Source: Flavobacteriales bacterium (GTDB taxonomy: Bacteria; Bacteroidota; Bacteroidia; Flavobacteriales_F; PHOS-HE28). Taken from it: a DNA stretch of 64,000 nt. The notes beneath the pieces are model-generated. The model was not told the origin of the DNA. It searched no databases and saw only the letters and a program-made list of their open reading frames with translations. Shown here one piece after another: positions 10,505 through 22,227 of the stretch (the first letter of the stretch is position 1; each line of letters begins with the position of its first letter). The translations under genes were made by a program, and so were the position numbers. Location: assembly GCA_016705545.1 (NCBI GenBank), contig JADIYA010000006.1:198353-262352 (forward strand), given 5' to 3'.

Positions 10505-11002
10505 TCAAATGAGAGCGCTTAGGCTATCCGCCAGCGCATCCATGCTATCGCACCAGCCGCCAATGTGACTATCGCGCGAGGCTGCGGTGGCCAAGCCCGT
10601 CTGGCGGAACTCGAGCCGAGTGCGTGGGCCTTCGTCATGCAGGTCAACGGTGACGAGCGTGCGGTGGCGCGCAGGGTTCACGTCCACAGGCGCTTTCTCC
10701 CATTGGTGCGTGAACGCCAGATGTGCGATGGGCCTTACCACCGTGTATGTGCCATAGCTAGGAATGTCCTCGCCATTGGGCGTGCGGAGCACCACGCGCC
10801 AGTTGCCGCCCTCGCGCAGGTCCGTTTCTGCGCTGATGGTGCTAAAGGCCGCACAGCCGAACCAGTGCACCAGCATGGCGGGCGTGACCCAAGCATCCCA
10901 AACCAAATGGCGCGGCGCATTGAACACACGGGTGATGAGGATCTCGTCCGGTGCGGGAGTGGAGACAGCATTGCGCGAACGCTGGGCGCTTGCTTGGTCC
11001 AT
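10505..11002 (-). CDS. SRPBCC (Aha1/AHSA1-like) domain protein
   Basis: Family signature ILITRVFNAPRHLVWDAWVTPAMLVHWFG...TYTVVRP, about 165 aa. Confidence 0.7.
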   Translation of the reverse strand: MDQASAQRSRNAVSTPAPDEILITRVFNAPRHLVWDAWVTPAMLVHWFGCAAFSTISAETDLREGGNWRVVLRTPNGEDIPSYGTYTVVRPIAHLAFTHQWEKAPVDVNPARHRTLVTVDLHDEGPRTRLEFRQTGLATAASRDSHIGGWCDSMDALADSLSALI

Positions 11003-11032
11003 GCCCGCAAATCTATCTGCTCGTGAAGAAGG

Positions 11033-11416
11033 TCAACCCTTGGTCATCGTCACAAGCCGCTTATGGTGCAATACGTACGACCACACCAGCACGCCGATGA
11101 AGAGGAACATCGGCGTCCATTGCGCCACAGGGTCGCCCACCGCAGCAAAAGAGACCATCGCAGCCACCAGATCGATGAGGAAACCGAAGTAGGCCCACTC
11201 TTTCACCCGAGCTGGCACCATGGGAAGCAGGATCACGACAGCGCCCAGCACCTTGGCATAGGAGATCAGCTTGATGAAGTAGAGCGGGTATCCCAGGTGG
11301 TCGTGCAGCATGGCCACGGATTGGGGCATTAGCGTAATTCCGCCGATGGAAGAGTAGATCATGAACGCGCTGAAGAGCGCGGTGACGATCCAGTAGGTGA
11401 GGTTGAGGCGTTTCAT
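11033..11416 (-). CDS. DoxX family membrane protein
   Basis: A 127-aa product with four predicted TM helices and a DoxX-like pattern (LISYAKVLGAVVILLP...FGFLIDLVAAMVSF). Its start overlaps the upstream gene by 4 nt. Confidence 0.6.
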   Translation of the reverse strand: MKRLNLTYWIVTALFSAFMIYSSIGGITLMPQSVAMLHDHLGYPLYFIKLISYAKVLGAVVILLPMVPARVKEWAYFGFLIDLVAAMVSFAAVGDPVAQWTPMFLFIGVLVWSYVLHHKRLVTMTKG

Positions 11417-11919
11417 GTGGCAGGTTGGGGGTTGTCTCGGGTCGAGCCCGGGATGACGACGGTTGAGCGTTGGGCCCTCAACAGCGCGTGAAGCCTATCA
11501 AGGTTCTCCTCGTTTGCGCGTTCGATGAAAACCCGGATCGGGGCTAGTTCCTCAGCCGTGTCGAAGCGCATGATCCAGTCGATGCGTGTGCCGCCGTCCA
11601 CCTCCGAGAAGGTCACCATCGCCTTGTAGAAATGCATCTCCTTCAGGTGGTCGAACTCCAGGTGGATGTGCGCCTCTATCCGTTTGAAGACGCACGTGTT
11701 GTTGAAGTCCATGCCATTCGGTCCATGCATGGTGAATTCCCACAGCCCCTCAGGCTTCAGCTCGAAGCGATGGAAGGTATTGGTGAAGCCATGCGGCCCC
11801 CACCAGATCACAAGCTGCCCGGGATCGGTCCATGCCGCGTATAACAGCTCGCGTGGTGCCGCGATCACGCGGCTAGTTCTCACTTCGCGAGCGGCCTCTT
11901 GATCCTCTGATCTTCTCAT
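11413..11919 (-). CDS. SRPBCC (Aha1-like) domain protein
   Basis: Internal start MRRSEDQEAAREVRTSRVIAAPRELLYAAWTDPGQLVIWWGPHGF. The longer ORF running to 12108 overlaps the upstream DUF1801 gene. Confidence 0.65.
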   Translation of the reverse strand: MRRSEDQEAAREVRTSRVIAAPRELLYAAWTDPGQLVIWWGPHGFTNTFHRFELKPEGLWEFTMHGPNGMDFNNTCVFKRIEAHIHLEFDHLKEMHFYKAMVTFSEVDGGTRIDWIMRFDTAEELAPIRVFIERANEENLDRLHALLRAQRSTVVIPGSTRDNPQPAT

Positions 11920-11936
11920 TTCCTGATTCTCTGATC

Positions 11937-12317
11937 CTACTTCACCGGCCAGCGAACTTCGATCTCCGCCACCTTCGATTTCACAATCGCCATCACCAGA
12001 GCTGCGGGCAACGGCTTGTCTGGCGTGAACTGAATGGCGCCTTTGCTGGTCTTGAATTCCTTGAGTTGTTCCTCGAAGCCGGTCGGCACCGATCCGTACA
12101 GCGCGCAATGGGCCTTGGCTGCTCCGATGTACAGCATGGGGTGCCCGTTGTACCTGAAGCCGGGCATTCCATAGCCGAAGTGTTCCTCGATGCCCGGCGC
12201 CGCAGCGAGGATCTGCTTGCGCAGCTTCATCAAGCCAGCGCGTTGGTCCTTCGGTAGTGCGGCCAGGTAGTCGCGCGCTGTTGGGTTCATCCCATAGGTG
12301 GGGTTGGGCGCGGTCAT
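11937..12317 (-). CDS. DUF1801 (YdhG-like) domain protein
   Basis: A 126-aa product with the pattern KLRKQILAAAPGIEEHFGYGMPGF...GAAKAHCALYG. Confidence 0.6.
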   Translation of the reverse strand: MTAPNPTYGMNPTARDYLAALPKDQRAGLMKLRKQILAAAPGIEEHFGYGMPGFRYNGHPMLYIGAAKAHCALYGSVPTGFEEQLKEFKTSKGAIQFTPDKPLPAALVMAIVKSKVAEIEVRWPVK

Positions 12318-12910
12318 TGGTGAAAAGCCTCTCCGCGTTCCATCATGGCGATGAACAATGCAAGGCGCTTGGCTCGCGTCTCATCCCTCTTAGCGGTCTG
12401 CAAGCGGTGTAGGAATGCATAGCGCTTGGTGCCAGTGAGCGTATCGAAGAACCCTTTGGCCTTTGTGTTCTTCTTCAGTGCGACCGCCAGATCGGGTGGT
12501 ACTTGGATGGTGCTGGCGGGCGCGTAGGCCTTGTCCCACTGGCCGTTGGACTTGGCGACCTTCACGGCAGCAAGCCCAGCCGGACGCATCAGCTTCGCCT
12601 TGATCAACTGCTGCACCTTCTTCCTGTTGATCTCGCTCCAGATGCTGCGCGGCGACCGTGGCGTGAAGCGCTGGAGGAAGGTCTTGTCGTCGTTGCTCCG
12701 TTTCACACCATCGATCCAGCCGTGGCACAGCGCAACTTCCACGGCTTCGGCATAGGTCACGGATGGTATCGCGCTGCCCTTCTTGGCGATGCTGATGTAG
12801 ATGCCGGGGGAAACGGTCCCGTATTTATCCAGCCAGGCATCCAAGGCTTGCGCGGTATCGAAGCCGACAACCTCGCGGTCTGTGGGAATCGCCGGTGCTT
12901 GCTTCTTCAT
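12314..12910 (-). CDS. YdeI/OmpD-associated family (DUF1905-like) protein
   Basis: Sequence ...ALCHGWIDGVKRSNDDKTFLQRFTPRSPRSIWSEINRKKV...KRYAFLHRLQTAKRDETRAKRLALFIAM. The internal start is MKKQAPAIP. Confidence 0.6.
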   Translation of the reverse strand: MKKQAPAIPTDREVVGFDTAQALDAWLDKYGTVSPGIYISIAKKGSAIPSVTYAEAVEVALCHGWIDGVKRSNDDKTFLQRFTPRSPRSIWSEINRKKVQQLIKAKLMRPAGLAAVKVAKSNGQWDKAYAPASTIQVPPDLAVALKKNTKAKGFFDTLTGTKRYAFLHRLQTAKRDETRAKRLALFIAMMERGEAFHQ

Positions 12911-12921
12911 GGGTGCCAAGC

Positions 12922-13383
12922 TCAACCGACCAGCCAATTCAATTCGGTGCGATAATCCTTAGGGTCCTTCACCTCGTCAGGGTTGTTCAGGTAGCGCTCG
13001 AAGAACCGGCCGTCCTCGGGCAGTTTCCGCTCGCGTACCCAGTCTTGCAGTTCGCGCCAGGCATCACCCATCCGCTCGTACGGACCTTGGTATACAGCAC
13101 GCACCACCTTCGCTCCGGGCAGGGCGCTATTCTTCACGCGTCCAGCTTCGTTCACGGACTTCGATACTGGGAAGCCGATCTCGAAGTCGAAGGTGTCCCC
13201 GGGGCGGCGATGGTGGTAGCTGAACATCGGTCCGGCCGGTTGCAGGCCTTGGTCGGTAAGCGCTTGGATGATCTCTTGGATCGCGGGGTCCATGTACTTG
13301 GGCATGTCGCGGCCGGAGATGACCAAGTGGATGGTGGCTGCTCGCTGTTCGGTTGTGGTGATGACTTCGGGTGGGGTGATCAT
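12922..13383 (-). CDS. GyrI-like small-molecule-binding domain protein
   Basis: A 153-aa product resembling the AraC effector-binding/GyrI-like fold (AVYQGPYERMGDAWRELQDWV...FFERYLNNP). Confidence 0.6.
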   Translation of the reverse strand: MITPPEVITTTEQRAATIHLVISGRDMPKYMDPAIQEIIQALTDQGLQPAGPMFSYHHRRPGDTFDFEIGFPVSKSVNEAGRVKNSALPGAKVVRAVYQGPYERMGDAWRELQDWVRERKLPEDGRFFERYLNNPDEVKDPKDYRTELNWLVG

Positions 13384-13424
13384 GGGGTGAAGATCAGACG
13401 ATCAGATGCTGAAAGGGCATCCGA

Positions 13425-13814
13425 TCAGGTGAGTTTGATCCAAGCGCTCAAGATGGCTTGCAACGCTTTTGCTTTTGCCTGGATATCCGCAGCATCCTTG
13501 AAGACGATCTGGCTGCGGTCGTTGCCGAGCCATTTGATCAAGTGCTCCGGATCGGGGATGCGGTCCTTCAAGACGATGCCTTTCGCTTTGGGGCCGGCGT
13601 GCAGGATGATCATCGGATCTTTCACGTGCCTAGGGCCGTTCAGCGTGGCGAACCAATCCATCGTTCGGAAGCTGGCCGTATTCCACTTCACACCTTCCTC
13701 GATCGACTTGTCGGCATTGAGGATGATGGTCCGTAGCTGGTCGAGTTCCTTTCGTAACGGATGCTTGTGCGCGTCAAGAAGGGTGGAAACAGCCGAATCG
13801 AAACGATGTGGCAT
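13425..13814 (-). CDS. DUF1801 domain protein
   Basis: A 129-aa product (EEGVKWNTASFRTMDWFATLNGP...) with a DUF1801-like pattern. Confidence 0.55.
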   Translation of the reverse strand: MPHRFDSAVSTLLDAHKHPLRKELDQLRTIILNADKSIEEGVKWNTASFRTMDWFATLNGPRHVKDPMIILHAGPKAKGIVLKDRIPDPEHLIKWLGNDRSQIVFKDAADIQAKAKALQAILSAWIKLT

Positions 13815-13820
13815 GGAGGG

Positions 13821-14300
13821 TCAGCTTCGGGAGGCCAGGTATTGATCCAATCGTGCGTAGCCCACCTCCATTTCATTGCCCATCTGCACGGCGATCACAC
13901 CTTCACGCGCAGCGGTGGACTCGTACTCAACGGTCAGTGTCATCAAGGTCCTTCCGCCATCCTCAGTGAGCACCATCTTTCCCACCGCTTCGCCCGGGTA
14001 CCACGATTGATCGAATTTCTCAGTGGTCACGAGGCGCTCGGGCCTGACGATCTCTTTGTAAAAACCGCTCATGCCCATCTCAATTCCGTCGGTATTCCGC
14101 CACACCCATCGGTAAGCCCCACCCACCCGAAGGTCGATCTCGCAGACCACGAGCGTCCAACCGGTCGCGCCATGGAACCAGTTCAACATCATCTCGGAAC
14201 TGGTCATCGCATCGAATACCAAGGCGCGTGGAGCCTTGAAGGTGCGCGTGATACGGATCGCGCGATCGCCGTGGGGAACGATTTCGACTTCAGTGCTCAT
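13821..14300 (-). CDS. SRPBCC (Aha1-like) domain protein
   Basis: Family signature AIRITRTFKAPRALVFDAMTSSEMMLNWFHG...RVGGAYRWVWRNTDG. Confidence 0.7.
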   Translation of the reverse strand: MSTEVEIVPHGDRAIRITRTFKAPRALVFDAMTSSEMMLNWFHGATGWTLVVCEIDLRVGGAYRWVWRNTDGIEMGMSGFYKEIVRPERLVTTEKFDQSWYPGEAVGKMVLTEDGGRTLMTLTVEYESTAAREGVIAVQMGNEMEVGYARLDQYLASRS

Positions 14301-14333
14301 GAAGGTTGCAGTCTAGGTAAGTCTGTATGAGGT

Positions 14334-14750
14334 TCAAGCCTGCCCCTCCGCATGCGCCTTGAACCGGTCCAGGATAGCCTGCCAGCCCCCACGTTGCATT
14401 TCAACGGGATTCTCGGATTCAGCATCGAAGGATTCCGTGATGCGCGTGCCGCCATCCTTCATCTCGAAGAGGATCTCGCAGCTGCGGCCATCGGCCATGG
14501 TGTAGGCGATGCGCTTGTTCAGTTGAACATCGTCATACACTCCGGCGAAATCGAAGCTGAAGCTGCCATCGCGCGCGGCCATGGTGCTGCTGAACGAACC
14601 GCCAATGCGCAGATCGTTGGTCGCCTTGGGGCAATGCCAGTCATCGCTGGCGGCGTTCCATTGCATGATGTGGGCCGGCTCTGTCCAGATCCTCCAGACG
14701 TGGGTCACAGGCTTGTTGACGTGGGTGGTGATGGTGATGCGGGTGCTCAT
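14334..14750 (-). CDS. SRPBCC (Aha1-like) domain protein
   Basis: Family signature ITITTHVNKPVTHVWRIWTEPAHIMQWNAASDDW...RIGGSF. Confidence 0.7.
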   Translation of the reverse strand: MSTRITITTHVNKPVTHVWRIWTEPAHIMQWNAASDDWHCPKATNDLRIGGSFSSTMAARDGSFSFDFAGVYDDVQLNKRIAYTMADGRSCEILFEMKDGGTRITESFDAESENPVEMQRGGWQAILDRFKAHAEGQA

Positions 14751-14790
14751 GTTGCATGGAGTTGTGGCGCCAGATTCCGCGCCCGTACGA

Positions 14791-15672
14791 TCAATCCTCG
14801 ATGGCTTCGATGCCTTGCTCCTTCAGGCGTTGCAGGTGTTCGTTCATGGCCTGAAGCAGTTCCGGTGCATGGCCTTGCCAGTCGGCCACTTCGCCCACCA
14901 CGCGCAAGGCGCTCTTGGTGCGGTATGACCTGGTCGGATTGCCGGGGAACTTCTTGTCGGTCAGGTTGGGGTCGTTCTCGAAATGCCCGGTGGGCTCCAC
15001 GATGTAGATCCGGCCGCGGCCTTCGCCCTGGGCCAGTTCGGCACCCCAAGTGGCGGCATCCAAGGTGGCTGTCAGGTAAACGTACTTGGCCGGCTTCTGC
15101 TGGCCGTAGTTGGAACTGAACCCCGGTTCGATCAGATCGCCCACTTTCACCTGAGCCTTGGTGCCATGGTAGTACGTGGTGCTCGACAGGAGCTCGTCCA
15201 ACTGCTCCAGTCCCATGGTGAATCCTTCTTTGAAGCCCATCTTGAGGATCTGCTCCAACGCTTCCGGAGAAGTGAAGTCCAGGTGCATGCGAACCGTCGT
15301 GGTGCCCCCGCTCTCGCTGAAATGGTTCTTCCAATGCGTGGCCGGCTTGAAGCCGTTGGCCGAACCATCCTCGTCACAGAACGCATCGTGCCCATCGAAG
15401 TAGGTCTTGGGCGTGATGGTCCCGTATTCGAAGAAGCACCAATGCCGGTCGCCCTGCGGACCCTCCATGCAGTAGAGCCACTTGCCACCTATGCGGAAGT
15501 CCAGCGACTTGATGATGCATTGATAAGGCCGTGGAGCCCACCACTGGCAGAGGATTGCGGGATCCGTCCATGCGGCCCACACCAGGTCCAACGGGGAGTT
15601 AAAGGTGCGTTCCACAGTGATGGTGCGGTCATCCTTGGCAATGATGAAGTTGAACATCGCGGGTGTCGGCAT
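14791..15672 (-). CDS. arr: Fusion of an N-terminal SRPBCC/Aha1-like domain to a C-terminal NAD+--rifampin ADP-ribosyltransferase (Arr) domain
   Basis: The N-terminal ~150 aa read ITVERTFNSPLDLVWAAWTDPAILCQWWAP...FRIGGKW (SRPBCC). The C-terminal ~135 aa read YYHGTKA...GDLIEPGF...WGAELA...GRGRIYIVEPTGHFENDPNLTDKKFPGNPTRSYRTKSALRVVGEVADWQGH...GIEAIED. These match the recalled Arr-ms motifs almost position by position: YHGTKA, WGAELA, YIVEPTG.FE.DPNLT.K.FPGNPT.SYRT, DWEGH, IED. Confidence 0.75.
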   Translation of the reverse strand: MPTPAMFNFIIAKDDRTITVERTFNSPLDLVWAAWTDPAILCQWWAPRPYQCIIKSLDFRIGGKWLYCMEGPQGDRHWCFFEYGTITPKTYFDGHDAFCDEDGSANGFKPATHWKNHFSESGGTTTVRMHLDFTSPEALEQILKMGFKEGFTMGLEQLDELLSSTTYYHGTKAQVKVGDLIEPGFSSNYGQQKPAKYVYLTATLDAATWGAELAQGEGRGRIYIVEPTGHFENDPNLTDKKFPGNPTRSYRTKSALRVVGEVADWQGHAPELLQAMNEHLQRLKEQGIEAIED

Positions 15673-15675
15673 GGC

Positions 15676-16158
15676 TCAATGGGTTTGCAGGGTCGTCACG
15701 TACTCAGCCAAGTGCGCCAGCGTCTGCTTCCCGCCTTCGATAGCACCGACGTTCTCCACCACGAAGTCACGCGCTTCTTTGGTCGGGAACACGGTCCGGA
15801 GCGTCACCAGCGTTCCATCGTCCTTCTGGTCGAAACGCAGCTCTCCTTCGAACTGCTTGGGATTAGCGGGATCGCCGTGATCGTAGGCGATGCGGCTCAT
15901 GGGCACGATTTCCCGGTAGGTGATCAGGTTGGGCCACACCTTGCCGTCCGGACCGGTCATGGTGTATTCCCACTCGCCACCCACGCGGAAGTCCATACGG
16001 ATGGTACGGTTGGTGAAGCCGTCCGGGCCCCACCAGCGATCGATGTGCGCGGCTTCCGTGCAGGCCTTCCACACCAGCGCTTGCAGTGCGCGCATGTGGC
16101 GGGTGATGGTGATCTCGCGATCGCTTGTTCCGGTTTGCATCTTGAACTCAATTGTCAA
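15676..16158 (-). CDS. SRPBCC (Aha1-like) domain protein
   Basis: Family signature ITITRHMRALQALVWKACTEAAHIDRWWGPDGF...RVGGEWEYTMTGPDG. Confidence 0.7.
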   Translation of the reverse strand: MTIEFKMQTGTSDREITITRHMRALQALVWKACTEAAHIDRWWGPDGFTNRTIRMDFRVGGEWEYTMTGPDGKVWPNLITYREIVPMSRIAYDHGDPANPKQFEGELRFDQKDDGTLVTLRTVFPTKEARDFVVENVGAIEGGKQTLAHLAEYVTTLQTH

Positions 16159-16555
16159 GCAGGTCCGTCAGAGCATAGAGCCGCATCTCCCAGCGATCCG
16201 CATAGCCATGGGTGATGAGCGATCCAATCGTCAGCGGCTCCATCGGGGTCATGCGGAGGTTGATATGGGTGAGGTGCTCGTCCTCCTCAAAATTGGCCTC
16301 GATGCGCACGGCATTCAAGCCATCGCTTTCTTCGGCTGTGAGGAAGGACGGGCCAATGGTGGTGATGCGGAACACTATTCCTTCAACCGGGGGTAGCCAA
16401 CGAACGCGCAATGAAGCCTCCTTCCAGAAAGGCGTTAGCCGCTCGAGGGATTCCCGCATCGAACGGTTGAAAATCAGGCAGCCCAAGTCGAGCTTGTGCA
16501 AGGGCTGGTCTTGTTGTAGGCCCACCGGCAAGTCGAGGAGATCCGTGTCGCGCAT
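16148..16555 (-). CDS. Hypothetical protein, possibly a divergent SRPBCC. Translationally coupled to the ArsR gene.
   Basis: Internal start MRDTDLLDL... The ATG overlaps the arsR stop in a TGATG arrangement. No confident family assignment. Confidence 0.4.
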   Translation of the reverse strand: MRDTDLLDLPVGLQQDQPLHKLDLGCLIFNRSMRESLERLTPFWKEASLRVRWLPPVEGIVFRITTIGPSFLTAEESDGLNAVRIEANFEEDEHLTHINLRMTPMEPLTIGSLITHGYADRWEMRLYALTDLLDN

Positions 16556-16887
16556 CACTTCTGGGGTTTCTTGCCTTGAAGTTCCTGGAGATAGGCATCG
16601 AGCCGATCGAAGCGCTCTTCCCACATCGTCCGGTACTGCTCGATCCAGGCATCGGCTTCTTTCAGTGGTTCAGCCTTCAACTCGCATGGGCGCCATTGCG
16701 CTTCACGTCCACGCTTGATCAACTGGGCACGCTCGAGCACTTTGAGGTGCTTGCTAACGGCAGGTAAGCTCATGTCGAAGGGTGCCGCCAACTCATTCAC
16801 GCTAGCGGGACCATTCGATAGCTGCGCGAGGATTGCCCTGCGCGTAGGGTCAGCAAGAGCCGAGAAGGTGAGCGAGAGGCGATCCAT
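16555..16887 (-). CDS. ArsR/SmtB family HTH transcriptional regulator (first gene of the SRPBCC operon)
   Basis: Signature LADPTRRAILAQLSNGPASVNELAAPFDMSLPAVSKHLKVLERAQLI, a winged-HTH ArsR pattern. Confidence 0.75.
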   Translation of the reverse strand: MDRLSLTFSALADPTRRAILAQLSNGPASVNELAAPFDMSLPAVSKHLKVLERAQLIKRGREAQWRPCELKAEPLKEADAWIEQYRTMWEERFDRLDAYLQELQGKKPQK

Positions 16888-16910
16888 GGAAGTGGCGCGG
16901 GGGCAAACGT

Positions 16911-16930: not shown

Positions 16931-16998
16931 ACAAATCCTGAACCAACGTGCAATCTTGGGGGCTACTCGACGATTACTGATCCTGGGAAACGGCGCCA

Positions 16999-19884
16999 CT
17001 AAGGCTCCGCCTCGATCAGCACCTCATCCGCGAAGATCCAAGTGGTCCCGCCCTTGCCGGGGTGCCAATCGGGGCACACGCCAGCATTCTTTGCCGTGAT
17101 GGCGATGTAACGTGCTTTCCTTCCACTAAGCTCGCGCCATAGCTCGCGCGTGATGCCTCCGTCAGCTTTGCGGCCAACATCGTGGCTGATCGTGGCACTG
17201 CTCCATTGCCGCTGATTCGTGCTCACGCTGAAGGTGACTTCGCTGGGCAGCCAGATCCAGCTCTTCTGGTCCTGCAGCACGCTCAGGCCCACGCGCTTCA
17301 GCTTCTGCACACGGCCCAGGTCGATTAACAATACCACGTCCTGGTCGCGGTAGCCCTGCCATTCACCGGTCCGGAAGTCCTTGCCGCCGCGCACGCCATC
17401 AATCAATGCGCTCGGTCCGCCCGCAGTGTACTCGTTGGCGTACTTGCTCTCCAGCGTGATGGTGCGGCCGCCTTCATACTTCACGTAAGTCGCGGTGACC
17501 TGCACCGAGGCGATCCTGTTCTTCCGTCCTTGCGCTCCTTGCACGAATGCCGTGGCACCGATCGAGCAGCTGCGGGTGATCCAGAACGGCGCTTGATAGG
17601 GGTGTGGCTCGGTTCCATCGATGCTGTATTCGATGCGCGCGCGATCATCGCTGCTGCCGATGGTGATGAGCAGGCTGTCGGTGAATGCCTGCCGCGCGGC
17701 CTGGATGACGGGCGCTGGTGTCCATGCGTCATCGAACTCGGGAATGAAACGTCCCGGTGATCCCCCCGGGCGCGGGCCTAGGGTGAAGCGCAACTCGCCG
17801 CCCTTCATCAGTTCGTCATGCGGGATGGTCCGATACGTCTCGGGCTGCTGGCCATTCCATGTGAAGCTCTCCACATGCGAGCGGTCGTTGCCCATCACCT
17901 CGGTGCGCATGCGCCATTTGCTGCCATTGCCCAGGTCAATGGTGGCTTCATCGAAGAGCGGCCAGCCGATGGTGTAGCTGGGATCACCGGGACAGATGGG
18001 GTAGAAGCCGAGCGCGCTCATCACCAGCCAAGCGCTCATCTGGCCGCAGTCCTCGTTGCCGATGAGGCCATCGGGCGCGTCCGTGTAGAAGTTCTGCATG
18101 ATGCGCCTCGCGAACACGTCCGTGCTCAACGGTCGGTCGCTCAGGTTGTAGAGGTAGGTGAAGTTGTGGCTGGGCTCGTTGCCATGGGCGTACTGGCCGA
18201 TGAGTCCGGTGATGTCGCTCTGGTCGCGTCCCGTGGTGTTCTCCTTCGCGGTGAAGAGCGCATCGAGCCTTCCCGCCAGACCGCTCGGACCACCGGTGAG
18301 GGACATGAACCGATCCATGTCATGCGGGACGAAGAAGCCGTATTGCCAAGCATTCGCCTCAGTGAAGTTGAAATTCACCTCATAGGGGTCGAAGGGTTGC
18401 ATGAAGCCGCCGTTTCGCCGCGCACGGAAGAAGCGCGTCTCGGGGTCGAATAGGTTCTGCCAATTTCGGCTGCGCTCGTAAAATCGTCGCGCCACATCAC
18501 CGTTGCCGATCATCTCTGCGAAGCGCGCGATGCACCAATCGTCGTAGGCGTATTCCAGCGTGCGGCTCACGCTCTCCGGTTCGTCCTCGCTGCTGATGTA
18601 GCCGCGCTCGCGGTAGGCCTTCAATCCGAAATGATCCGCATCGGCACTGGCCACCATCGCTTCCAAGGCCAGCTTAGTATCGAAGTCGCGGATACCCTTG
18701 GCATAGGCATCGGCGATCACGCTCACGCTGTGGTAGCCGATCATGCAATCGGTCTCGTTGCCCCAGAGCTCCCAAACGGGCAGTCGTCCGCTTTGCTTGT
18801 AGTGCAGCAGGAAAGTTTGGATCCAGTCGCTGGTCATCTCGGGTTCCAGCACGGTCATCAGCGGGTGCAGTGCGCGGAAGGTGTCCCACAGGCTGAAGAC
18901 GCTGTACACGTTGTGGTCGGCCTTGTGGACCTCACCATCCATGCCGCGGTACTGGCCATCCACATCGTTGAAGATGCAGGGCGCCACGTAGCTGTGGTAG
19001 AGCGCGGTGTAGAAGGCGCGCTGCTGCTCCTTGGTGCCGCCCTTTACTTGGACCTTGTTCAGCTTGGCGTTCCACGCATCCTCGGCTTGCTTGCGCACGA
19101 GATCGAAATCCCAATGCGGCACTTCGGCCTCGAGGTTCCTACGCGCGCCTTCGATGCTCACGGCGGAGATGCCGACCTTAACAATGAGGGGTTCAGCACT
19201 ATTCCGAATGCCCACGACAGCGACCGTGCTATCTGATGCCTCGCGCACGATCTGTACCTCCCGGCTGAAACGGGCGACGAAGTAGAGCTGCTGATCGCGC
19301 GTCCAGGATGAGCTGCGTCGCTTGCCTGCCAACTCGCTCTGCGCCGTTTGAATGATGGACGCACCAAGCAGCTTGTCGCGATGGCGCAGATCAACCACCA
19401 TGAACTGCTCTGGTCCGGCCGGGATCCGGTAGCGATGAACGCCCACACGCGGCGATGACGTCAGTTCAACGCGAGTGCCCGTTCGGTCCAATTGAACGGA
19501 GTAATAGCCAGCGCTGGCCTGCTCGGTTTCTTTCATGAATGAGGATCGATAAGCCGCCGGGCTCGTCGAGTACTTGTCCGTCATGGGCATCAACAGCATA
19601 TCGCACAGATCCGCCACGCCGGTGCCGCTCAGGTGCGTGTGACTGAAGCCGTAGATGAGGCTATCCGAATAATGGTAGCCTCCGCAGCCGTCCCAGTCCA
19701 TGTAGCCATCGGGGCGGGTATCGGGGCTGAGCTGCACCAGGCCATTGGGCACGCAGGCGCCGGGGTAGGTGTGGCCGTGGCCGCCGGTGCCGATGAAGGG
19801 GTTGACGAGGTCGCGGGCGGGGTTCACCTGAGCATGGCCAACGCCAGGCATCAGAATGCAGATCGCCGTTAACAATGGCAGCAT
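16999..19884 (-). CDS. GH92 family alpha-mannosidase with C-terminal carbohydrate-binding/F5-8 type C-like extension. Secreted.
   Basis: Signal peptide MLPLLTAICILMPGVGHAQ, followed by NPFIGTGGHGHTYPGACVPNGLVQLSPDT (GH92 N-terminal signature). The long ORF starts earlier at 20214; the biologically plausible start is 19884 or 19932. Confidence 0.75.
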   Translation of the reverse strand: MLPLLTAICILMPGVGHAQVNPARDLVNPFIGTGGHGHTYPGACVPNGLVQLSPDTRPDGYMDWDGCGGYHYSDSLIYGFSHTHLSGTGVADLCDMLLMPMTDKYSTSPAAYRSSFMKETEQASAGYYSVQLDRTGTRVELTSSPRVGVHRYRIPAGPEQFMVVDLRHRDKLLGASIIQTAQSELAGKRRSSSWTRDQQLYFVARFSREVQIVREASDSTVAVVGIRNSAEPLIVKVGISAVSIEGARRNLEAEVPHWDFDLVRKQAEDAWNAKLNKVQVKGGTKEQQRAFYTALYHSYVAPCIFNDVDGQYRGMDGEVHKADHNVYSVFSLWDTFRALHPLMTVLEPEMTSDWIQTFLLHYKQSGRLPVWELWGNETDCMIGYHSVSVIADAYAKGIRDFDTKLALEAMVASADADHFGLKAYRERGYISSEDEPESVSRTLEYAYDDWCIARFAEMIGNGDVARRFYERSRNWQNLFDPETRFFRARRNGGFMQPFDPYEVNFNFTEANAWQYGFFVPHDMDRFMSLTGGPSGLAGRLDALFTAKENTTGRDQSDITGLIGQYAHGNEPSHNFTYLYNLSDRPLSTDVFARRIMQNFYTDAPDGLIGNEDCGQMSAWLVMSALGFYPICPGDPSYTIGWPLFDEATIDLGNGSKWRMRTEVMGNDRSHVESFTWNGQQPETYRTIPHDELMKGGELRFTLGPRPGGSPGRFIPEFDDAWTPAPVIQAARQAFTDSLLITIGSSDDRARIEYSIDGTEPHPYQAPFWITRSCSIGATAFVQGAQGRKNRIASVQVTATYVKYEGGRTITLESKYANEYTAGGPSALIDGVRGGKDFRTGEWQGYRDQDVVLLIDLGRVQKLKRVGLSVLQDQKSWIWLPSEVTFSVSTNQRQWSSATISHDVGRKADGGITRELWRELSGRKARYIAITAKNAGVCPDWHPGKGGTTWIFADEVLIEAEP

Positions 19885-19942
19885 CGACCTTCTGGATCGA
19901 CCCGACAGAGTGGTATGATGTGGATTGGCCATTTCCGTTGAT

Positions 19943-20839
19943 TCAAAGGGTTCCCAGCGCCGCCGCCCCCAACAGCGCCGCATCGTCATCTGGCAAAGCC
20001 GATACCGTGAGGTCCACACGACCCTGATAGATATTGAGCAGGTTGGCGTGGAAGCGTTCGCGCAGCGGTGCCATGAGCAGGTCGCCGTTCCGCGCGATGC
20101 CGCCGAAGAGCACGATGCGCTTGGGTCCTGTGGCACAAACCGCATTCGCCAGTCCGATGCTGAGCCACTCCGTGGTGAGCTGGAAGCAGGCAATGGCTGC
20201 GGTGTCACCGGCATGCGCGAGGTCCGCGATGGTCTTCACGTCGGTGGGATTCGCCGCGCCGCCCTCTTCGGTGTAGGTGGCCAGCATGCCCCGGATGCTC
20301 ACATAGGCCTCCAAGCAGCCCTTCCTTCCGCAGGTGCAGGCCCGACCATCGGGCAGGAGGATCGTATGCCCGAGCTCGCCCGCATTGCCTGCGCTGCCCA
20401 GCACGAGTCGGCCATTCACAATGAACCCGCTGCCCACGCCAGTGCCGAGCGTTACCACCAGCAGATCATCAATCCCACGACCCGCGCCGTAACGCCATTC
20501 ACCGAGGGCTGCGGCATTCGCATCGTTGCCCAAATTGGCGGGGACACCAAGCCGGTCGCTCATCATCCTCGCCAAGGGCACATCGTGCTTCCAGGGCAGG
20601 TTGGGCGCCATCTCGATGATGCCCGTGAGTTGATTGGCGTTGGGCGCCCCAATGCCGATTCCAACAAACGGTTCACTATGCCCGCTGATCAACTGCTCGG
20701 CCGTTTCCGCCAATGCATCCGCGAAGGCATGATCATCGGCATGGCCGGTTGTGGCGATCCGCTCGCGGGCGACCACCTTACCATCACGCACCAGTCCGAG
20801 CTTGCTGGTGGTTCCACCGATGTCGATGCCCAGGATCAT
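19943..20839 (-). CDS. ROK family sugar kinase (glucokinase/hexokinase-like)
   Basis: MILGIDIGGTTSKLGLV..., ATCGRKGCLEAY (ROK zinc motif) and GIGAPNANQLTG. Confidence 0.7.
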   Translation of the reverse strand: MILGIDIGGTTSKLGLVRDGKVVARERIATTGHADDHAFADALAETAEQLISGHSEPFVGIGIGAPNANQLTGIIEMAPNLPWKHDVPLARMMSDRLGVPANLGNDANAAALGEWRYGAGRGIDDLLVVTLGTGVGSGFIVNGRLVLGSAGNAGELGHTILLPDGRACTCGRKGCLEAYVSIRGMLATYTEEGGAANPTDVKTIADLAHAGDTAAIACFQLTTEWLSIGLANAVCATGPKRIVLFGGIARNGDLLMAPLRERFHANLLNIYQGRVDLTVSALPDDDAALLGAAALGTL

Positions 20840-22227
20840 GCGGTGGGTGCGTGCTTCGAGCCCCGGAAGCCATACCATACCAGGAAAGCATAGCACAAGA
20901 GCGGCAACGCGAAGCTGATGTGGAAACCCATGGTGGTGTACTTCTGAACGCCCATGAAATCAATGATGGCCCCTTGCAACGGCGGGATGACCGCACCACC
21001 GACGATCATCATCACAAGAAGACTTGAGCCCTGCGCGGTGTCGTCTCCCAAACCATCGATGGCCAAGGTGAAGATGTTGCTCCACATGATCGAATTGAAG
21101 AGGCCGATGGCTACGATCGCCCACATGGCCCATGCACCATCGAAGAGGATCACGCCAACGAGCAGGCCTATGGCCGCGATTGCGAAGAGGCCTAGTGCGC
21201 GCGATGGGTTCGGTCCAGCGAGCACGAAGGCGATGAAGTTTGCGGCAATCAATGCGGCCATAGGCCACGCGTGCTTCAGCATGAAGCCCGAACCACCGTT
21301 CACCGTGACCAACAGAACGAACATGGCCGCACCAAGCAGCAGCATGCACAGGTAGCGCAAACCGCCCAAGCCCTTGTTCAATGCCACCGCACCCATGAAG
21401 CGGCCCGCCATTGCGCCGCCCCAGTACAAACTGAGATAATGCTTGGCGCTTCCTTCGGGCATGGCCATCACGCTATCGAGCTTGAGGAAGTTGATGAGCA
21501 AACTGCCGATGGCGACCTCGGCTCCCACGTAGCAGAAAATGGCCACCATACCCCAGCGCAGTTGCGGATGTCGCCAGGCGTTGCTTCGACCGCTGCTCAC
21601 ATGCGGTGGCTCCGGCAGTTCGGTGAAATGAACCCAAATGGCTTGCAGCAAGAGCAGCAGGGTGAAAGCCGCATACGGCCAACGCACCGCTTCATCGCCC
21701 TTGAAGACCGAGAAGATCAAGGCGCCCCCGATGATGGGCGCGAGGGTGGTGCCCAGTGAGTTGAATGCTTGGGCCATGTTCAATCGGCTGCTCGCACCGG
21801 CCGGGTCGCCGATGATGGCCACGAACGGATTGGCTGCGATCTGCAGCAAGGTGAACCCGAGGCCGAGCACGAACAAGGCGAGCAGGTAGAACGCGAACAT
21901 GTTCACGTAGGTGGCGGGAACGAAAAGGGCGGTGCCGAGCGCGGAAAGCAGGAGCCCTGCGATGAGCGCGCGCTTGTAACCGGCGTGCGCAATGGGGTCA
22001 ACACCGCCCTGCGATCGGATGTAGTAGACGAGCGAGCCAACGAAGTAGGCGCCGAAGAAGCAGAGATTCACCATCAGGGTCTGCCACCACGGCATGCCGG
22101 GGAAAACGGTGCGCAGGTGGGGGATGAGCACATCGTTCATCACCGTCATGAAGCCCCACATGAAGAAGAGCGTGGTGAGGACAACAAGCGGGTAGGTGGC
22201 GGAGCGCTGGTTCATGGTACTGGTCAA
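20836..22227 (-). CDS. MFS sugar transporter of the FucP / glucose-galactose (GluP) subfamily
   Basis: Twelve TM helices. The N-terminus LVVLTTLFFMWGFMTVMNDVLIPHL is characteristic of FucP/GluP. Confidence 0.7.
   Translation of the reverse strand: MTSTMNQRSATYPLVVLTTLFFMWGFMTVMNDVLIPHLRTVFPGMPWWQTLMVNLCFFGAYFVGSLVYYIRSQGGVDPIAHAGYKRALIAGLLLSALGTALFVPATYVNMFAFYLLALFVLGLGFTLLQIAANPFVAIIGDPAGASSRLNMAQAFNSLGTTLAPIIGGALIFSVFKGDEAVRWPYAAFTLLLLLQAIWVHFTELPEPPHVSSGRSNAWRHPQLRWGMVAIFCYVGAEVAIGSLLINFLKLDSVMAMPEGSAKHYLSLYWGGAMAGRFMGAVALNKGLGGLRYLCMLLLGAAMFVLLVTVNGGSGFMLKHAWPMAALIAANFIAFVLAGPNPSRALGLFAIAAIGLLVGVILFDGAWAMWAIVAIGLFNSIMWSNIFTLAIDGLGDDTAQGSSLLVMMIVGGAVIPPLQGAIIDFMGVQKYTTMGFHISFALPLLCYAFLVWYGFRGSKHAPTA

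Follow-up and report, generated by a model that had tools for sequence, protein, structure and literature searches.

Arr enzymes, clinically relevant for the resistance to rifamycins that they confer, have been characterised from members that are all single-domain. Those verified functionally are proteins of about 140-150 amino acids (aa) (PMC8492726); Arr-ms of Mycolicibacterium smegmatis (structures 2HW2 and 9IAF) and Arr-2 (9IBA) are monomers of this kind, each with an N-terminal tail of about 15 residues. A survey made in 2021 saw Arr-domain proteins of 36-679 aa and retained only those resembling Arr-ms. The gene described here differs from the known enzymes in being longer by a whole domain. 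It lies on the minus strand of a 64,000-nucleotide (nt) stretch of DNA from a Flavobacteriales bacterium (assembly GCA_016705545.1, contig JADIYA010000006.1, positions 198,353 to 262,352 of the forward strand), hereafter the window, and in its product the tail is replaced by a 163-aa AHSA1/SRPBCC domain. The original prediction, made from sequence alone, had named both domains, had taken single-domain proteins of about 140-150 aa as canonical for Arr, correctly as regards the functionally verified enzymes, and had called the fusion an unusual architecture. The fused product represents an uncharacterised architecture of a resistance enzyme already known, explained by fusion of neighbouring genes; we think it probable that an ordinary rifamycin ADP-ribosyltransferase is here translated in a single chain with the protein next to it in the operon. 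The gene and its parts are as follows.

14791..15672, minus strand: the fused gene B::Arr, 293 aa, AHSA1/SRPBCC (paralogue 'B') plus Arr; from the open reading frame (ORF), Pfam, NCBIfam, homologue clusters and the ratio of nonsynonymous to synonymous substitution rates (dN/dS)
15184..15672, minus strand: N-terminal AHSA1/SRPBCC domain, residues 1-163, helix-grip fold; from PF08327, the 2lf2 match and the model
15163..15201, minus strand: fusion junction, residues 158-170, LDELLSSTTYYHG; from split relatives, DSSP and the alignment
14794..15183, minus strand: C-terminal Arr domain, residues 164-293, predicted NAD+:rifamycin ADP-ribosyltransferase; from NF033144, the 2hw2 match and conserved sites
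14791-14793, minus strand: stop codon of the fused gene

The reading frame runs uninterrupted through 293 codons, the first 163 of them AHSA1/SRPBCC and the remainder Arr. An exact-sequence search for the window protein gave no match; a fused gene 99% identical to the one in the window is found in independent assemblies (the P0001 cluster, with 7 members, and locus L092, which has the upstream ATG in common with the window); the ungapped 293-aa architecture is kept in 21 further clusters at 60-78% identity; and the fused ORF is present on contigs of 238 kb and 881 kb. Because the near-identical copy comes from independent assemblies and the diverged clusters have the same architecture, the fusion is no assembly artefact: it is real and recurrent. 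Against five fused relatives dN/dS lies at 0.16-0.26 in the AHSA1 part of the protein and at 0.07-0.15 in the Arr part, and comparison with the near-identical L092 copy gives 0.09 and 0.15 respectively. Purifying selection acts on both halves of the protein. Targeted literature searches found no description of an AHSA1-Arr fusion, and a 2026 review of START domains does not mention ADP-ribosylation; NCBI labels one B::Arr protein, MBL7962574.1, as a plain NAD(+)--rifampin ADP-ribosyltransferase.

Profile searches place residues 167-265 in the Pfam family Arr-ms (PF12120; expectation value (E) 1.2e-49, 167 bits against a cutoff of 25, over the full profile, 1-99) and residues 164-293 in the NCBIfam equivalog NF033144, rifampin_ARR (218.7 bits against a cutoff of 130). 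A sequence search of the PDB returned Arr-ms (2hw2/9iaf) at E 1.8e-47, with Arr-2 (9iba) also matched; in Foldseek the modelled half, whose predicted local distance difference test score (pLDDT) is only 58-92, superimposes on 2hw2/9iaf with a template-modelling (TM) score of 0.77-0.78, at 58% identity over the C-terminal 130 aa. Morgado et al. (PMC8492726) and Kim et al. (PMC6092378) list the residues involved in catalysis and binding, and these were located by aligning the window to Arr-ms. The H-Y-D catalytic core, on whose conservation the original prediction had staked its assignment, is intact: H19, Y49 and D84 of Arr-ms are found in YYHGT, YVYLT and ENDPN. Of the NAD+ motifs, defined as HGT and S[NH][YF] (PMC8492726), the window has HGT and SNY; W59 and the DPN[VL] motif, here DPNL, are kept as well; the loop of rifampin site 1 (87-95) reads LTDKKFPGN, against VTDKKLPGN in Arr-ms, and the helix of site 2 retains M126, L130, L133 and I141 (list in PMC6092378). 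F39 of Arr-ms is Y in the window, still within the SN[YF] motif that characterises Arr-ms and Arr-2. All the motifs first read from the sequence are there too: YHGTKA, WGAELA, GRGRIYIVEPTGHFENDPNLTDKKFPGNPTRSYRT, DWQGH and the terminal IED. Fused, split and three-domain relatives carry the same site residues, and there is therefore no sign of a change of substrate; the enzyme itself is inferred to be active. It is in length that the protein falls outside the usual description, its 293 aa and extra 163-aa domain exceeding the single-domain 140-150 aa or so that is typical of verified Arr enzymes but not strictly defining.

The N-terminal half matches Pfam AHSA1 (PF08327) at residues 26-162, with E 3.8e-17 and 63.1 bits against 22.1, over profile positions 2-124 of 125, and is accordingly not a mere extension devoid of SRPBCC homology. 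Among PDB sequences it matches the AHSA1-like CHU_1110 of Cytophaga hutchinsonii (2lf2; E 6.4e-44), and Foldseek aligns the modelled half with 2lf2, 3uid and 2ldk at TM 0.80-0.90 (2lf2 at 43% identity and TM 0.80). DSSP assigns to the model the seven strands and long helix (147-163) of the helix-grip fold, in which an antiparallel sheet encloses a long C-terminal helix, at pLDDT 90-96. CHU_1110, 3UID, 2LDK and 1XUV share that fold, but unlike the window domain they are standalone structural-genomics proteins, none of them linked to an enzyme domain. To our knowledge, the bacterial ArsR-AHSA1 operon family to which we shall assign this gene's neighbourhood has many structural-genomics structures and no known function. 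By profile and against the PDB the two halves match SRPBCC-type and Arr-type families respectively, and Pfam, NCBIfam, PDB and Foldseek agree on the domains originally named. Closer relatives of the N-terminal half exist as separate genes: standalone B orthologues of 166-167 aa are 66-71% identical to it, and no residues were found that separate Arr-linked from unlinked B domains. B-type domains carry four invariant or nearly invariant cysteines, at residues 42, 52, 79 and 99 (in LCQWW, YxCV, HWCFF and FCDE), which are absent from the A-type paralogue described below; a redox or covalent-capture role for them is possible.

At the junction the C-terminal helix of AHSA1 passes through a linker of three residues into strand beta-1 of Arr (DSSP on the model: helix 147-163, strand 167-171, linker pLDDT about 90). 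The junction is ungapped and invariant in length in all B-Arr proteins, down to 51% identity in the N-terminal half. An AlphaFold2 model of the window protein, built on an alignment of 38 sequences, has a mean pLDDT of 84 and a predicted TM score (pTM) of 0.80, and B::Arr is predicted to be a rigid two-domain unit; a control model of the related A::Arr fusion, for which the alignment was shallower, gave a pTM of 0.56 and a linker pLDDT below 50, an arrangement of beads on a string. Foldseek matches to the fused model included no solved chain spanning both halves.

The origin of the fusion is indicated by genomes in which its two parts are still separate. In sister Flavobacteriales metagenome-assembled genomes (MAGs) the pair occupies the same operon in the same order as in the window, the B protein being 60-69% and Arr 71-77% identical to the corresponding halves. 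In L006/L007, L010, L013 and L017 the B gene ends in ...LDELLTSGK and a stop codon, 13-15 nt follow, and arr then begins with MEKDVFYHGTKA, whereas the window reads ...LDELLSSTTYYHGTKA across the boundary; other spacings are a gap of 3 nt in L011 and an overlap of 4 nt in L027. These split pairs (L006, L010, L013, L017, L027) resemble the window in operon, gene order and orthology of the proteins, and differ in being two genes, -4 to +15 nt apart, with a stop codon and an ATG of arr's own, where the window has one polypeptide. Because related genomes carry both genes separately, 13-15 nt apart, the fusion may be put down to in-frame loss of about 30 nt that removed stop codon, spacer and start codon. 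A synteny survey of split and fused states, which included 80 Bacteroidota species representatives, placed a B orthologue in the same slot without arr in L005 and in most of those representatives; and in a neighbour-joining tree of Arr domains, drawn without bootstrap, the operon-linked ones form one clade in which the split forms branch at the base and the fused ones are derived. The most economical order of events would have arr first arriving downstream of B in an ArsR-AHSA1 operon already in place, and being fused to B later. The Arr proteins of the window's subfamily have an N-terminal tail of only about five residues, and for that reason may tolerate fusion to what lies upstream.

The operon to which the fused gene belongs, and the AHSA1 genes beyond its end, comprise these further features.

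16555..16887, minus strand: ArsR/SmtB-family regulator, 110 aa, first gene of the operon (HTH_20 and HTH_5)
16148..16555, minus strand: conserved 135-aa gene directly after ArsR, no Pfam family (synteny)
15676..16158, minus strand: AHSA1 paralogue 'A', 160 aa (PF08327, E 2e-24)
14334..14750, minus strand: AHSA1 paralogue D1, 138 aa (profile match and synteny)
13821..14300, minus strand: AHSA1 paralogue D2, 159 aa (profile match and synteny)
13425..13814, minus strand: DUF1801 protein (profile match)
12922..13383, minus strand: GyrI-like small-molecule-binding protein (profile match)
12314..12937, minus strand: YdeI/OmdA-family protein, last syntenic member of the operon (profile match and synteny)
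11413..12108, minus strand: fifth AHSA1-domain gene, downstream of the operon
10505..11002, minus strand: sixth AHSA1-domain gene

This is an ArsR-AHSA1 operon, with ArsR first, co-directional AHSA1, DUF1801, GyrI-like and YdeI genes, and gaps of -70 to +41 nt; the stop of gene A lies 3 nt before the ATG of the fused gene. The order ArsR-unk-A-B::Arr-D1-D2-DUF1801-GyrI-YdeI, where unk is the 135-aa gene, is syntenic in six other loci (L001, L003, L009, L088, L091, L092), and in all syntenic loci ArsR is the first gene. On inspection this ArsR reads ASVNELAA where ELCVCDL is expected; because the CXC metal-binding motif is absent, its effector is probably not a metal or metalloid. The 135-aa gene and the ArsR gene overlap, start on stop. 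Pfam gives no match to the former even at E = 5, and it has syntenic counterparts of 135-141 aa in L001, L003, L088, L091 and L092. Counting the N-terminal half of the fusion, six AHSA1-domain genes lie inside 6 kb (10505-16158, minus strand), a marked local expansion of the family.

Other junctions of this operon are fused elsewhere: A to B, D2 to DUF1801, and a counterpart of the 135-aa gene to a B-type AHSA1 domain (unk::B, in P0104), while A is itself fused to Arr in other genomes (A-Arr, A-B-Arr). On such comparisons the operon is generally fusion-prone. The D2::DUF1801 proteins are 305-333 aa long, and double-AHSA1 A::B proteins of about 320 aa are common across Bacteroidota; individual operon-junction fusions were noted at L001 9392-10309 and L006 8374-9375, in L008, L011 and P0047, and as ORFs of about 320 aa in many loci.

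Around the operon lie chromosomal, housekeeping genes (for ClpB, ThrRS and a topoisomerase of GyrA/ParC type) and a GH92-ROK-MFS sugar cluster. GC content is uniform across the window, between 0.57 and 0.63, and shows no island; a search of 72,556 plasmid records did not find the fusion. An origin in a mobile element was rejected on these grounds. The closest relatives are found in MAGs of Flavobacteriales or Bacteroidota, several recovered from activated sludge, and the window itself probably stems from an uncultured bacterium of that sort. The MFS-ROK-GH92 cluster (GH92 being an alpha-mannosidase family), at 16999-22227 on the minus strand just upstream of the ArsR operon, is syntenic with L003 1327-6577, which supports a close relationship of window and L003. 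The window contains no Rfam family at gathering threshold and no tRNA, and a riboswitch or other regulatory RNA near arr was rejected for want of such an Rfam match. A scan for sigma-70 promoters gave no match, that consensus saying little about promoters of Bacteroidota type, and a scan for terminators gave only background. An 8-nt perfect inverted repeat, AGTGGCGC / GCGCCACT, at 16891-16898 and 16993-17000, has its arms 94 nt apart, flanking the 111-nt intergenic region upstream of ArsR, and is probably due to chance.

How widespread Arr fusions are was assessed in the best 120 protein clusters at the 90% identity level. AHSA1-Arr fusions make up 34 of them, in four architectures, listed here with the tandem Arr proteins.

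B::Arr, 293 aa (the window's type): 21 clusters of the best 120
A::Arr, 286-289 aa, partner the upstream paralogue, B lost (L088): 3 clusters of the best 120
A::B::Arr, 444 aa (L091): 1 cluster of the best 120
divergent A'-X-Arr, 438-456 aa (L004, L089): 9 clusters of the best 120
tandem Arr-Arr, about 240 aa: 69 clusters of the best 120

The same fusion, sought in other genomes as the original prediction had proposed, is therefore readily found. The description of it as unusual stands by comparison with the characterised enzymes and fails by comparison with its relatives, more than a quarter of the best clusters sharing the fusion; among them are several Flavobacteriales MAGs, in which NCBI labels it as ordinary Arr. 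The genes for A'-X-Arr proteins stand alone, not in an ArsR operon, and their surroundings look Planctomycete-like or Myxococcota-like; the Arr domains of these proteins form a separate clade and the AHSA1 domains reach no more than 41% identity with A and B, and AHSA1 and Arr have therefore been fused at least twice independently. A third origin, with an AHSA5-like partner (P0145), was discounted as a single sequence on a 1.2-kb contig. Among 80 metagenome loci centred on Arr proteins of 64-88% identity, arr is standalone in 67, is truncated by a contig end in 10, is fused in two, the closest relatives, and in one has an AHSA1 gene 6 nt upstream.

A wider search of a 1.84-billion-protein representative library (E ≤ 1e-10) returned 832 Arr-containing representatives, of which the long ones carry Arr C-terminally behind GNAT, isochorismatase, SDR, Zn-ADH, MarR, Imm5-like or AHSA1 domains. 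Most of these fusions are clusters of one to three members on short contigs, and those with GNAT, isochorismatase, SDR, ADH and MarR are a weak sign of generic fusion-proneness; MarR as a genomic neighbour of arr is only surmised. The exception is Imm5-like (PF21805)::Arr, the P0203 cluster (306-338 aa, 28 members at 90% identity, one from a Nanopelagicales MAG), the sole other clearly recurrent Arr fusion found. GNAT is the upstream neighbour of arr in Pedobacter sp. Leaf194 (L033 3679-6984), in the order ArsR-AHSA1-glyoxalase-GNAT-arr-DUF4256; in P. ginsengiterrae JCM 17338 (L076 5636-7059) the order is ArsR-AHSA1-arr. The Leaf194 glyoxalase is of the glyoxalase/bleomycin-resistance type, and both strains are cultured and usable for work on the ArsR-AHSA1-arr linkage. 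In tandem Arr-Arr (about 240 aa, cyanobacteria and Chloroflexi) and Imm5-like::Arr (317 aa), as in the window, Arr sits at the C-terminal end of a longer protein, and in Arr-Arr it belongs to the window's own subfamily at 63-72% identity; the N-terminal partner is another one, in Arr-Arr a degenerate Arr without D84 and the site-2 helix. The Arr-Arr proteins (P0023-P0035, P0033, P0040, P0091, P0092) come from Phormidium, Desertifilum, Leptolyngbya and Litorilinea; their N-terminal copy keeps HGT, Y49 and W59, has A for D84 and PNI for SNY, lacks the C-terminal helix of rifampin site 2, and is probably a catalytically dead pseudo-domain.

On the reading that we prefer, the C-terminal domain would use NAD+ to ADP-ribosylate the C23 hydroxyl of rifamycin, which would then no longer bind RNA polymerase. 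The enzyme has been joined translationally to its upstream neighbour, which is paralogue B within a group of ligand-binding AHSA1/SRPBCC proteins, probably through in-frame loss of some 30 nt between two adjacent genes 13-15 nt apart. Fusion would guarantee 1:1 co-expression of the two domains, with the SRPBCC domain held rigidly against Arr, as AlphaFold predicts, and with the catalysis and substrate specificity of Arr unchanged; the SRPBCC domain would keep the Arr-independent ligand-binding role that it presumably has in the many genomes lacking Arr, in an operon of small proteins of ligand-binding or detoxification type, presumably under an ArsR-type repressor that does not respond to metals. 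The sequences fit an Arr that readily accepts fusion to whatever lies upstream, AHSA1 being its commonest partner because arr resides in ArsR-AHSA1 operons. Several observations sit less easily with this. AHSA1 recurs as partner in four architectures with two or more origins, of which one is a lone gene with no ArsR operon around it; the modelled packing of B::Arr is confident and rigid (pTM 0.80, against 0.56 for the more shallowly aligned A::Arr); and the Arr domain has as its only departures E in place of A139 of Arr-ms and, in site 2, MNEHL against M[RK][DE]xL, two changes that could possibly bring small differences in substrate preference. Another reading is a retargeted transferase, in which the SRPBCC domain would present Arr with another small molecule, or with a protein, to ADP-ribosylate. 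According to reviews (PMC8883491), specific contacts between Arr and rifampin are few and other substrates may exist, but the rifampin-site residues are retained and are those of split and standalone relatives, the Arr score is at equivalog level, and the strongest constraint (dN/dS) is on the Arr half. We consider retargeting very unlikely, and the original suggestion that it might be towards another small molecule found no backing, HGT, SNY, Y49, D84, DPNL, site 1 and site 2 being unchanged and alike in fused and split forms. Smaller still, indeed barely worth reckoning with, is the chance that the gene is an artefact or in decay, the outcome of a frameshift, an assembly chimera or a meaningless read-through: many other 'long' metagenome Arr proteins are single observations on short contigs, but recovery of this ORF in independent assemblies, in more than 20 diverged clusters of the same length and on the two large contigs, together with dN/dS well below 1 in both halves, effectively refutes it.

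The alternative that draws most on the recurrence of AHSA1 is that the fusion is adaptive: the SRPBCC cavity would bind rifamycins or related hydrophobic polyketides and hand them to Arr, in line with the substrate recruitment first suggested, or sequester them, which would lower the effective Michaelis constant (KM) or widen the substrate range. AHSA1 is the dominant partner of Arr (34 of the best 120 clusters, at least two independent origins including the lone A'-X-Arr genes), the A'-X-Arr type, having left the operon, survives as a gene complete in itself, the ArsR-AHSA1-arr linkage reaches cultured Pedobacter, and the three-residue junction is invariant and ungapped, with the difference in pTM from the control model just mentioned. 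There is a precedent for resistance by antibiotic binding in the START-fold self-resistance protein CalC (PMC13525633), and CalU16 is among the structural neighbours of the window domain; these two share the superfamily fold but are distant (17-18% identity, TM about 0.55), we do not claim that the window domain belongs with them, and their self-sacrifice mechanism is specific to enediynes. Rifampin phosphotransferase (RPH) inactivates rifamycins with a catalytic part and a separate rifampin-binding domain (PMC4844700), and may serve as a functional analogy for a possible capture-and-modify layout, though its folds and chemistry (ATP-grasp, swivel His, phosphorylation) are unrelated. Against adaptive capture, B orthologues 47-66% identical to the window domain are widespread in Bacteroidota operons without Arr, in 67 of the 80 loci of close Arr relatives arr stands alone and no AHSA1 gene lies near it, nothing in the residues distinguishes Arr-linked from unlinked B domains, canonical Arr needs no partner, and Arr is also fused to other upstream neighbours. 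We therefore regard it as unlikely that the fusion serves capture and inactivation, and as somewhat more doubtful again the specific proposal that the B-type SRPBCC domain is a binding module for rifamycins (ansamycins or polyketides) which forms with Arr a capture-and-inactivate unit.

The existence of a conserved, selected two-domain form means that environmental Bacteroidota carry Arr variants which are lost to the length and coverage filters of resistance-gene surveys. That arr is repeatedly linked to AHSA1/SRPBCC genes is, besides, among the few pointers to a function for bacterial SRPBCC proteins, a very large family. If the SRPBCC domain has no effect on Arr, the window presents a tidy case of neighbour-gene fusion in a tightly packed operon. 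If capture should prove true, the fused protein would be unprecedented among Arr enzymes in having a domain dedicated to substrate recruitment, and would provide a first ligand and function for the common ArsR-AHSA1 operon family, as an antibiotic-sequestering defence.

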